DNA from: an uncultured Coxiellaceae bacterium
Lineage (GTDB): Bacteria; Pseudomonadota; Gammaproteobacteria; DSM-16500
Assembly: GCA_964492045.1 (NCBI GenBank)
Contig: CAZBHW010000012.1
Location: forward strand, 14,431 to 78,430
Length of the DNA stretch: 64,000 nucleotides
Reading direction: 5' to 3'
Below the pieces are notes generated by a model. It was not told the origin of the DNA and did no database searches. It saw only the letters and a list, made by a program, of their open reading frames with translations. This document shows positions 34,088 to 36,121 of the stretch, in pieces (position 1 is the first letter of the stretch; each line of letters opens with the position of its first letter). The position numbers were made by a program, and so were the translations under genes.

Positions 34088-34873
34088 TTAATAACTTATT
34101 TCTGAAATCACGCCAATTGTTACCCATTTCTTCAGCATTGTAGCAGCTGCGATAGCAACGATATCCTCATTCATGAACTGACATAGTCCTTCACAAATAT
34201 CCGCAAAGCTTGAATCCGATATCGCAGCATCTAATGCCCAAGCCTCATCATTTGGCATGGAATTAAAATGACTGATCAATTCATGGCGCCAGAATAGCCA
34301 TGTTATAGGAGAAGAGTGTTGTGTTAGTGCCATTGTACTGTCTTCATTTAACGTAGATTGCCAAAAATCTATCACATTCCAATGAAACTGAAATCGATGC
34401 ATTGATGGATGAAAAATAAAGTGCATCTCTGCCCATGCATCCGGTGGGATGAGTGATATCTGTTCGAGCGTAAAGACTTTTGCATCTTGCGCGTCGAAAA
34501 CGAGCGTCATTATCCAGTCTAGTTGTGCTATTTCGTGAAGATATGGAAATGATTTAGATAAATCACACAATTGTATAAAATCAGGGAATCTATCGCCATA
34601 CCAGCGTATGGATCGGAAACATGAATTGTTTTTATCGATATAAGTCGCGGCAATAGCGTTAAATTCATCATCACCCAAGCAAGTGCGAAGAAATGGAAAA
34701 GTACTGGATAAAGCTTCTAGTAACCGCGTTTTATAGGCATTAGCGTAGATAGCTAATCTTTCAACCGCGTGGAATTTTTCTGTGCTTACTACGTGTGTGA
34801 CAATTATACTCGAATCAGATTGCAATAAATATTGCTGAAATGAATCTTGAATCTGCTTTAAACCTGTCATCAT
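34088..34873 (-). CDS. bufC: DUF2063-family RiPP maturation partner (BufC/HvfC-like)
   Basis: 261 aa with an N-terminal LAIYANAYKTRLLEAL pattern typical of DUF2063. It overlaps the DUF692 gene by 4 nt. Confidence 0.7.
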   Translation of the reverse strand: MMTGLKQIQDSFQQYLLQSDSSIIVTHVVSTEKFHAVERLAIYANAYKTRLLEALSSTFPFLRTCLGDDEFNAIAATYIDKNNSCFRSIRWYGDRFPDFIQLCDLSKSFPYLHEIAQLDWIMTLVFDAQDAKVFTLEQISLIPPDAWAEMHFIFHPSMHRFQFHWNVIDFWQSTLNEDSTMALTQHSSPITWLFWRHELISHFNSMPNDEAWALDAAISDSSFADICEGLCQFMNEDIVAIAAATMLKKWVTIGVISEISY

Positions 34874-35700
34874 GCCACCGCTGTCAATGCGTTTTGCGCA
34901 ATCATTCGAGCATAATTTAGCTCGGTGACCAATGATTCAAGTGGTGGAATATTATCGTCACGTTCTATCATTGTTGATACAAAACCAAAATGTTTAATGG
35001 CATCAGCGTATAATTTCCAGACCGGATCAATAATATCTTGATCATGCGTATCGATAATGTAATTACCCATGTTGGAATGTCCCGCAAGGTGGAATTGGAA
35101 AACTCTATTTTTTGGTATATTAGTTAGAAAGGTAGAAGGATTAAATCCGTGATTTACAGAACTGACATAAATATTGTTGATATCCAATAAAATGTGACAA
35201 TCGGCTTGATTGGTAATTTCACTAATAAATTCCCATTCAGTCATCTGTGATTGTTGATACTCTATATAGCTCGATACATTTTCAATTACTATTTGCCGGC
35301 CGAGAAAATTTTGAATTTCCTGAATACGACCAACAATATGCTGAATAGATTCCTCTGTGTATGGGAGCGGCAGAAGATCATGTGTATTCTTTCCATGAAT
35401 GCCAGTCCAGCATAAATGATCTGAAATCCATTTTGGTTTGATACGTTCGCTGAGTTGTTTAACTTGTCGTAGATAGTCAAAATCGATTGGATCCGTACTG
35501 CCGATAGACATCGAGACACCATGCATCACTACTGGGTATCGTTCACAAATTTGATTAAGGTAATAATGCGGCTTGCCGCCCGGAACAAGATAGTTTTCAG
35601 TAATTACCTCAAACCAATCAACCGGAGGATTGGACGATAATATTTGTTCGTAATGACTTGGTCGTAAGCCCAAACCAAATCCAAGTTTTTGCCTATTCAT
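34870..35700 (-). CDS. bufB: DUF692 / MNIO-family (MbnB-like) multinuclear iron oxidase, RiPP maturase (BufB/HvfB-like)
   Basis: 276 aa with GLGLRPSHY, WFEVITENY, HGVSMSIGS and FHLAGHS motifs typical of DUF692 TIM-barrel enzymes. Confidence 0.8.
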   Translation of the reverse strand: MNRQKLGFGLGLRPSHYEQILSSNPPVDWFEVITENYLVPGGKPHYYLNQICERYPVVMHGVSMSIGSTDPIDFDYLRQVKQLSERIKPKWISDHLCWTGIHGKNTHDLLPLPYTEESIQHIVGRIQEIQNFLGRQIVIENVSSYIEYQQSQMTEWEFISEITNQADCHILLDINNIYVSSVNHGFNPSTFLTNIPKNRVFQFHLAGHSNMGNYIIDTHDQDIIDPVWKLYADAIKHFGFVSTMIERDDNIPPLESLVTELNYARMIAQNALTAVA

Positions 35701-35857
35701 AAACAGGATAGTCTTCTTAATTAATGTGCCTGACAGTCAACTAAGGACTTCGACATCAGAAATAATTTTGCATCAGCATGAATGTGTTTTTAATTATGTA
35801 TTTCACATTAAGAGCACATTCGATAGTAGATGCGCTCATTAATGTGGTTAATAAGAA

Positions 35858-36121
35858 TTAGCTTTGAGAAGTAGAACCACCAGCATCTTTACATGCTTTA
35901 CTGGATGCCATCAACTTCAATCCTTGCCCTTTGCAGGAGTTCATCCCTTTACATGAATTATTCGCTGTTTTGCAATCGCTCATTCCTTTGCATGAATTCG
36001 TTCCGTAGCATCTAACGTTATTTACCTGTCCTTTGGCAATTGCTGAGGTAACAGGTGCAGCTGCAAACCCTAATGCTGCAGCGGTCGCGATTGTTATTCC
36101 AATCAATTTTTTATTGCTCAT
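35858..36121 (-). CDS. bufA: bufferin/HvfA-type RiPP metallophore precursor (Sec signal peptide, 6 Cys)
   Basis: 87 aa with signal peptide [29 protein letters not shown]. The core [32 protein letters not shown]...ACKDAGG has repeated SCKG motifs. It lies upstream of the MNIO and DUF2063 genes. Confidence 0.7.
   Translation of the reverse strand: [87 protein letters not shown]

Follow-up and report, generated by a model that had tools for sequence, protein, structure and literature searches.

In a 64,000-nucleotide stretch of DNA from an uncultured Coxiellaceae bacterium (contig CAZBHW010000012.1; the whole stretch is called the window below), we analyzed a three-gene cluster at positions 34088-36121 of the minus strand that had been predicted to encode a bufferin- or Hvf-type metal-binding peptide with its maturation enzymes. 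The order of precursor, MNIO enzyme and DUF2063 protein given in the original prediction was borne out, with three intact open reading frames (ORFs) lying exactly where it had placed them: bufA (35858-36121), coding for an 87-aa bufferin precursor of the BufA2 family; bufB (34870-35700), coding for a 276-aa maturase of the MNIO (DUF692) family; and bufC (34088-34873), coding for a 261-aa partner of the DUF2063/PME1 type. The start of bufC overlaps the stop of bufB by 4 bp (ATGA) and, to judge by this layout, bufC is translationally coupled to bufB, while a spacer of 157 nt separates bufA from bufB. When all 381 ORFs of at least 35 aa in the window were searched with hidden Markov models (HMMs), no bufferin precursor other than bufA was found. 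On the evidence presented below, we consider it very probable that the three genes form an intact Buf2-type bufABC cluster, whose precursor is matured to a thiooxazole peptide that chelates and buffers copper in the periplasm.

The precursor matched the NCBIfam model NF050166 (Cu_RiPP_BufA2, "BufA2 family periplasmic bufferin-type metallophore") with 86 bits against a cutoff of 60, over profile positions 2-78 of 79, which settles the subfamily that the original prediction had left open. No Pfam family, including PF10048 (DUF2282), matched it at E ≤ 0.01, and the protein is thus recognized by NCBIfam only. BufA has six cysteines, at precursor positions 38, 44, 50, 57, 63 and 77, with three SCKG motifs and one DCKT, and the core quoted earlier, with its six cysteines and three SCKG repeats, was correct. 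The N-terminus consists of a KK n-region, a hydrophobic stretch (residues 6-24, mean Kyte-Doolittle value 1.94) and AIA before K30; by inspection, residues 1-29 (nt 36035-36121) look like the Sec signal that had been proposed. Because no cysteine precedes residue 38, this signal is not of the lipobox type. The remaining core, K30-S87, has 58 residues, an isoelectric point of 9.4, no histidine and three methionines, and its computed monoisotopic mass in unmodified form is 5922.66 Da. A search of a large protein collection with BufA returned 293 homologs at E ≤ 0.001, of which the closest cluster representatives are metagenomic and 91-76% identical. In an alignment of 113 sequences, C38, G40, N42, C44, K45, C50, C57, C63, G67 and C77 are invariant, and A29, K51, K58, G59, K64 and G65 are conserved in at least 90%. 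Among the relatives, P0009 has 12 cysteines in tandem domains and a lipoprotein-type signal; it also matches the BufA2 model and fits the published description of the family.

The proposal that the 276-aa protein belongs to the MNIO family is supported by a match of 377 bits to PF05114 (MbnB_TglH_ChrH), and the NCBIfam model NF050167 (MNIO_BufB, "MNIO family bufferin maturase") scored 385.7 bits against a cutoff of 310. Other NCBIfam models remained under their cutoffs, namely HvfB (286.4 against 360), MbnB (TIGR04159, 67.7 against 325) and, likewise, ApyH and ChrH. The closest solved MNIO in the PDB is the DUF692 protein 3BWW (E 4e-52), and the structures of TglH and MbnB also match. The BufB motifs vmHGvs, sDHl, iEN, lDInN, fHlaGHs, iDTHd and iERDdN are in register with 3BWW and MbnB. 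The conserved motifs of the MNIO family carry its iron ligands. A scan of GTDB species representatives found no BufB above 69% identity, and the 80 closest BufB loci in these genomes (60-69% amino acid identity) are referred to here as the related loci. Residues 246-250 of BufB read ERDDN, as compared with ERDFN in 3BWW, which is of the Lys-Cys type, and the ERD motif could be located in 69 related BufB sequences, each of which has Asp after it. The residue following the catalytic-base Asp has been reported to be Phe in MNIOs acting on Lys-Cys (EGKCG) substrates and Asp in those acting on Cys-Lys substrates; the class-determining position is BufB2-Asp251, equivalent to FonB-Phe250, and the Asp has been modeled as contacting the substrate Lys (PMC13097082 section 14). 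Since ERDDN has Asp at this position, the signature of BufB suits its C-K-G substrate.

The N-terminal 100 residues of BufC matched PF09836 (DUF2063) with 75 bits against a cutoff of 27.2, as expected for the partner protein that had been proposed. The HvfC model aligned with nearly the full length of the protein, yet scored only 32.8 bits against a cutoff of 142. With BufC as query, no PDB sequence matched at E ≤ 1, and a 45-sequence BufC profile retrieved only a chance MerR-like match and not 3DEE. An AlphaFold2 model built with 69 homologs reached a predicted local distance difference test score (pLDDT) of 94.1 and a predicted template modeling score (pTM) of 0.87, and Foldseek aligned it in the PDB to TglI, the partner of the MNIO TglH (8HCI_A, E 2.5e-7, TM 0.61), and to 3DEE, a Neisseria DUF2063 protein (E 1e-4, TM 0.66 normalized to the target) that is regarded as the PME1 prototype (PMC13097082). 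As the sequence and profile searches had given nothing meaningful, the likeness of BufC to 3DEE and TglI is visible only at the level of the fold. The C-terminal part also resembles the RRE proteins that bind lasso-peptide leaders (6JX3_B and 5V1V), weakly and with E above 1. The old Pfam description of DUF2063 as a DNA-binding regulator was rejected, given that fold and literature show an MNIO partner. The named proteins most similar to BufC come from Legionella, and the label "Legionella-like" rests on these matches together with a homolog of NttC elsewhere in the window.

Taken by their model matches and motifs, the three genes are unambiguously of the Buf2 type, also called BufA2, BUF_6/12Cys or "Cys-Lys" captophorin. 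Buf2 has been defined by six conserved cysteines in 90% of its members and a Sec signal (PMC11626156, PMC12452194), and the last name was given to the same precursors by a second research group (PMC13097082). Three other memberships were ruled out. Buf1/DUF2282 does not apply, as there is no PF10048 match and there are six cysteines instead of four. Hvf/oxazolin (EGKCG) is contradicted by C-K rather than K-C motifs, by Asp instead of Phe at the class position and by the HvfB and HvfC scores, so that the "Hvf-type" in the earlier title was too broad. Methanobactin is contradicted by the TIGR04159 score, the DUF2063 partner and the Sec-signal precursor. A BufA2-type precursor was detected by HMM in 78 of the 80 related loci, as a tandem pair in about 20. 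The absence of a DoxX-type fourth gene, already pointed out from the sequence, stands, as the feature following bufC is an integrase remnant on the opposite strand. In the related loci, none of the 48 same-strand ORFs within 200 nt downstream of bufC codes for DoxX, and Caulobacter buf2ABC lacks doxX too; the three-gene layout is therefore the rule for the group. Of those 48 downstream genes, 14 belong to the creatininase family (in L022, L032, L040 and other Bradyrhizobium-type loci), four encode DUF2282 precursors and the rest are scattered. Even in Buf1, DoxX is dispensable for modification and function (PMC11626156).

From the characterized Caulobacter Buf2 and related systems we infer the mechanism: the chemistry, the choice of modified cysteines, that the product binds copper, that copper induces the cluster, and in what order maturation and export take place. 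BufA would be made as the 87-aa precursor and bound in the cytoplasm by BufC, which would present it through an RRE-like domain to the multi-iron oxidase BufB. With O2, BufB would convert C44, C50, C57 and C63, each of which precedes a Lys, to 5-thiooxazoles, at the cost of 4 Da each. The Sec signal (1-29) would then carry the peptide to the periplasm and be removed after A29, the outer pair C38 and C77 would form a disulfide, and the 58-residue product would chelate Cu(I) and Cu(II), buffering periplasmic copper alongside the CopA pump, the cupredoxin, the multicopper oxidase and the Cus-type efflux system. In the only characterized Buf2 cluster, buf2ABC of Caulobacter, copper acts as an inducer, Fe, Zn and Mn do not, and the cluster confers protection against copper. 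The mass of its product is shifted by -18 Da; each central cysteine accounts for -4.03 Da, and CysI and CysVI carry no modification and are probably joined by a disulfide (PMC11626156). Applying these published shifts to the computed mass, we predict a mature core of about 5904.5 Da. Of the two chemistries offered in the original prediction, thiooxazole agrees with the current literature, in which 5-thiooxazoles have been confirmed in bufferins (bioRxiv 10.64898/2025.12.15.693703) with further support for the assignment (PMC13097082), while the oxazolone/thioamide assignment, made for oxazolin, has been revised (PMC13097082, bioRxiv 10.64898/2025.12.15.693703).

The gene neighborhood is what connects the cluster to copper. 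An intact copA (37985-40258, minus strand), coding for a P1B-type ATPase with an HMA domain, lies 1.9 kb upstream of bufA on the same strand; a gene for a cupredoxin-like protein (37624-38010, minus strand; Pfam) stands between the two, and cus-type genes lie further on. We found the synteny of copA, cupredoxin and bufA2 at about 80% DNA identity in three metagenomes (loci L081-L083), where one strand carries copA, cupredoxin, a 65-aa Cys-rich gene, a first bufA2 (a), a DUF305/CopM-like gene, a second bufA2 (b), bufB and bufC. On another contig, L086, the order is DUF2231, a multicopper oxidase fused to CopB, CopA, cupredoxin, a 74-aa His/Cys-rich gene, DUF4396 and bufA2, with no maturase nearby; its proteins are 50-67% identical to those of the window (61-64% for CopA and cupredoxin), and it is plasmid-like, since it carries Rep3 and ParAB genes. 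The bufA2 of L086 (10001-10258) is an orphan of the a-type, as is that of L090 (5504-5767, 76% identical), which lies beside KfrA, integrase and zeta-toxin genes, and neither contig has an MNIO gene. As read from these contigs, the module order DUF2231, multicopper oxidase::CopB, CopA, cupredoxin, bufA2 is conserved in this clade. The argument that placement beside the cop and cus genes makes the cluster part of the copper defense of the island is therefore upheld in so far as the cop linkage is conserved in two further lineages of the clade; it does not extend to the 80 related Buf2 loci, from which the linkage is absent.

Comparison with L081 also revealed two precursor lineages. The window BufA is 86% identical to the a-type BufA2 of L081 and only 56-57% identical to two others, the b-type BufA2 of L081 and a precursor of 88 aa encoded ahead of bufB in L094, a 69-kb metagenome scaffold; the b-type precursors of L081 and L094 are 86% identical to each other. 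With blastn, window positions 36136-35810 correspond to L081 3342-3672, and 35745-34085 to L081 4546-6206. At the junction between these homology blocks (35746-35809, minus strand), about 64 nt in the window replace 873 nt of L081 holding the DUF305/CopM-like gene and bufA2(b). Two states alone cannot decide between a deletion in the window and an insertion in L081; because L094 has the b-type precursor, bufB and bufC, a deletion in the window is favored. As a consequence, bufBC now stands in the window behind what is, in the relatives, the precursor of the cop module. Both paralogs score above the BufA2 cutoff and have all Cys-Lys motifs in common, so that maturation of the a-type precursor by BufBC is plausible. 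Tentatively, and with somewhat more doubt than belief, we suggest that the a-type BufA2 lineage is cargo of a mobile copper module, sometimes without enzymes, and that the deletion in the window placed it before bufBC. If so, bufferin precursors would move between elements independently of their enzymes, to be matured in trans or by captured bufBC pairs, and periplasmic copper buffering would be a modular addition to transferable copper resistance in Legionella-like water bacteria. In L088, L089, L094 and L095, one bufBC pair is flanked by BufA2 and BufA1 (DUF2282) precursors, followed by YceI, cytochrome b561 and YceI; from this it would seem that a single maturase pair acts on precursors of both families.

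Several observations weigh against periplasmic copper buffering as the function of this cluster and should be set beside the foregoing. The precursor next to bufB in the window is not the paralog that precedes bufB in the relatives, and its compatibility with BufBC is assumed. Within about 6 kb of the 80 related loci, no homolog of the window CopA, multicopper oxidase, CusA, CusB, outer-membrane protein, cupredoxin, DUF4156 or DUF326 was found, in a scan for which L081, as positive control, scored as expected; one Buf2-type cluster of L. pneumophila and one of L. micdadei that we inspected lie among housekeeping genes, with no copper gene adjacent. Since adjacency is absent from all of these loci, the context supports copper only within the present clade. 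In L094, a close relative of the bufBC pair, the neighbors are mercury-resistance genes. Expression signals point the same way. Promoter-like sites near the cluster are fewer than in shuffled sequences, and the best, a sigma-70-like TTTACA-17-TATTAT about 100 nt upstream of bufA (36220-36248, minus strand), is weak, scoring 10/12 in a consensus scan and no better than chance. Genes for a copper-sensing regulator, a sigma factor or an anti-sigma factor were not found near the cluster, nor were MerR/CueR, two-component or SigF/NrsF genes among the island ORFs scanned, and a search of sequencing runs for the locus returned DNA metagenomes only and no RNA runs. Finally, an AlphaFold2 model of BufA (113 sequences) has C38 on its first strand and C77 on its C-terminal helix, in agreement with published models; its confidence is low (pLDDT 57.6) and it was not relied on, so that the C38-C77 disulfide rests on analogy.

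Part of this evidence would suit a peptide directed mainly at a soft metal other than copper (Hg, Au, Ag, Cd or Zn), or one that buffers thiophilic metals in general. The closest bufB outside the L081 group (that of L094, 86% amino acid identity) lies on an element with merA, merR and an HMA gene; among the genes of the island in the window are those for a second RND system, for a CDF transporter and for a second P-type ATPase that lacks an HMA domain; and gold- or cadmium-induced gig operons as well as MerC-bufferin fusions are known from the literature (PMC11626156, PMC12452194, PMC5413113). We nevertheless regard this as improbable, considering that in three lineages the a-type bufA2 has copA, cupredoxin and multicopper oxidase genes linked to it and that the sole characterized Buf2 responds to copper, and not to Fe, Zn or Mn, and protects against it (PMC11626156). 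The same linkage could be taken to mean that the peptide is a periplasmic copper chaperone, handing Cu(I) to the cupredoxin, the multicopper oxidase or the CusCBA-type pump. The position of bufA2 after copA and cupredoxin is fixed in the three lineages, two of which have no adjacent maturase, and a CusB-CusF fusion and Met-rich periplasmic proteins give the island the look of a relay-type system. The protein-protein contact that a chaperone implies is without evidence, however, the published bufferin data fit stoichiometric chelation (PMC11626156) and most Buf2 clusters have no copper partner nearby, and we hold a role in delivery to be just as unlikely as a different metal. Buffering of periplasmic copper by a chelating peptide thus remains the reading that we prefer.

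Several findings bear on whether the cluster is maintained and expressed. Relative to L081, the closest relative (about 80% DNA identity), the ratio of nonsynonymous to synonymous substitution rates (dN/dS) is 0.12 for bufA, 0.07 for bufB, 0.22 for bufC and 0.105 for copA; by this measure the buf genes are under purifying selection and constrained similarly to copA. Logan contigs from four runs in three studies (groundwater, wastewater and soil) cover the region at about 100% identity, spanning the junctions integrase/ArsR/DUF326/integrase remnant/bufC/bufB/bufA and also bufA/upstream/HMA remnant/RelB/cupredoxin. Because these contigs cross the gene junctions at essentially full identity, the arrangement is real and no assembly artefact. 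A megablast of 33000-38000 against the PLSDB plasmids gave no match. A Shine-Dalgarno-like AAAGGAG (36128-36134, minus strand), read from the sequence, precedes the bufA ATG by 6 nt. No intrinsic terminator was detected in a scan of 33600-37000. An RNA hairpin without U-tract lies 12 nt after the bufA stop (35804-35846, minus strand; dG -19.4 kcal/mol, z -6.5), and none of 200 shuffles folded equally well; it may act as a partial terminator or attenuator, or stabilize the bufA message and so raise the precursor:enzyme ratio. The corresponding region of L081 has no significant fold (z -1.08), which leaves conservation of the hairpin unsupported. That the cluster might be a silent or decaying passenger of a mosaic region, with no functional product in its host, could be argued from the integrase and copA 5′ remnants on either side of it, from the loss of the DUF305 gene and of the bufB-preceding bufA2 of the closest relative, from the lack of homology to that relative upstream of the cluster and from the want of a terminator or convincing promoter, but the three intact ORFs with their catalytic and Cys motifs kept, the dN/dS values of 0.07-0.22, the identity of the locus in four metagenome runs and the good ribosome-binding site before bufA make this highly improbable.

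Among known systems, the closest counterpart is buf2ABC of Caulobacter vibrioides (CCNA_02999-03001, bufferin 2; PMC11626156), which has the same precursor/MNIO/DUF2063 order without doxX, a Sec-signal precursor with six conserved cysteines in C-K contexts, and members of the same BufA2 and BufB NCBIfam families. Its core has 61 residues as compared with 58 here, its SigF/NrsF regulon context has no equivalent here and, unlike it, the cluster of the window lies next to copA in a mobile metal-resistance island. The Buf1/DUF2282 and gig operons (C. vibrioides buf1ABCD, C. metallidurans gig and L. pneumophila GIG; PMC11626156, PMC5413113) share the MNIO and DUF2063 pair, a signal-peptide precursor, thiooxazole chemistry and a role in metal stress. 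Their precursors, however, have four cysteines and match PF10048, neither of which is true of the window precursor, and a Buf1 cluster usually includes doxX as well and often also genes for a sigma and an anti-sigma factor. In the oxazolin/HvfABC, fontiphorin and gonophorin systems (EGKCG "Lys-Cys" captophorins; PMC11252979, PMC13097082), an MNIO and a PME1 protein put 5-thiooxazoles on a secreted, Cys-rich, copper-binding peptide; the oxazolin-type substrate motif is K-C-G and the specificity residue Phe, as against C-K-G and Asp in the window. Methanobactin (MbnABC) also arises from the action of an MNIO-family enzyme on cysteines of a ribosomal peptide to give a copper chelator. It differs in its partner, MbnC instead of a DUF2063 protein, in the short leader-core MbnA, in its oxazolone-thioamide groups and in a product that is secreted for copper uptake, while a bufferin is exported by Sec and stays periplasmic. 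Lastly, the L. pneumophila metal efflux island, as outlined in the preprint that cites it (bioRxiv 10.1101/2024.09.04.611240), likewise joins copA and RND efflux genes on a horizontally acquired element. The bufferin cluster of the window lies inside such an island, in contrast to the inspected L. pneumophila and L. micdadei Buf2-type clusters among their housekeeping genes.

Bufferins are a large, recently described family with curated equivalog models, to which this cluster adds a member and not a concept. The unusual point is that a Buf2 copy is physically tied to a transferable copper-resistance module in this clade, and the locus is a natural setting in which to ask whether diverged precursors can be served by one BufBC pair. 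Copper-silver ionization serves as a means of Legionella control in water systems (PMC5413113; bioRxiv 10.1101/2024.09.04.611240), and an element that joins efflux, oxidation and a periplasmic chelator would therefore be relevant to the spread of copper tolerance in such settings.

The region around the cluster is a metal island. On its left side, a KfrA-like gene (30441-31496, plus strand) and a tyrosine recombinase (31489-32694, plus strand) are followed by an ArsR/SmtB regulator (32749-33108, minus strand) and a 104-aa DUF326/Csp-like protein with 24 cysteines (33137-33451, minus strand). The latter lacks a signal peptide and shows weak similarity to the four-helix-bundle copper storage proteins of the Csp1 family. 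On either side of the pair stand the intact integrase gene and an integrase 3′ remnant downstream of bufC (33598-33886, plus strand), the remnant forming direct repeats, 77-80% identical, with 32410-32699 of the intact gene. On the other side of the cluster, a 60-aa copA 5′ (HMA) remnant (36618-36800, plus strand) is inverted with respect to the intact copA, as an inverted repeat relates 36626-36763 to 40104-40241 with 74% identity; its HMA, CopZ and CopA HMM matches are all below cutoff. Together, the two remnants flanking the buf genes point to repeated recombination around the cluster. Further upstream, an orphan relB (36901-37167, minus strand) codes for a RelB-family antitoxin with no recognizable RelE gene alongside, in a segment missing from L081 and L086. 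Next to it, a secreted protein of 78 aa rich in Met, Asp and Lys (37237-37473, minus strand), with MKD/DKM repeats and no family match, is a candidate periplasmic Cu(I) binder; its position is occupied by the 65-aa Cys-rich gene in L081 and by the 74-aa His/Cys-rich gene in L086.

Beyond copA, the minus strand carries a DUF4156 gene (40286-40648), a gene for a 932-aa multicopper oxidase fused to CopB (40670-43468; Pfam), a gene for a DUF2231 membrane protein (43487-44074; Pfam), the CusA, CusB-CusF and outer-membrane protein genes (44676-50784), the second P-type ATPase (51724-53844) and the second RND system (53787-59518), and the CDF transporter follows on the plus strand (60241-60873). The fusion combines, in a single ORF, a CopA-type oxidase with three cupredoxin domains and a CopB outer-membrane domain, and it is no sequencing error, because the same fusion occurs in L086 (3262-5880, 872 aa, 64% identical). 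There are four paralogous DUF4156 genes (40286-40648, 44107-44595, 50970-51455 and 59736-60212), each beside an efflux or oxidase module, of which at least the last has a lipoprotein-type signal. At the right end, 60876-64000 holds genes for a TIR-domain protein, an HTH_3/Gp49 (HigBA-like) pair, DUF6471 and DUF932, and 62234-64000, which takes in the HTH_3/Gp49 pair, DUF6471 and DUF932, is 78% identical in DNA to part of the L094 scaffold (within the region 14204-20786), which continues into RadC and a TrwC relaxase. Given this match to a scaffold with RadC and relaxase genes, the right end is probably the backbone of an integrative element, and the island probably lies on an integrative, conjugative or mobilizable element.

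Towards the left end of the window, six consecutive ORFs of 141-175 aa occupy 175-3029, and the four of them that were scanned are GNAT acetyltransferases. The genes after them, up to 6708, encode an aminoglycoside acetyltransferase of the AAC(3) type, a methyltransferase and a protein of 617 aa in which an AadA-like nucleotidyltransferase is combined with a weak, below-cutoff kinase-like match. The region 14428-25037 contains genes for two proteins with a beta-lactamase fold, of which one also has a fused S41 peptidase domain, and for a protein of 888 aa in which a DUF4379 treble-clef zinc finger is repeated ten times. A TniA-like/TniB transposition pair is located at 21259-24041, and a homolog of the Legionella type II secretion substrate NttC at 24615-25037.

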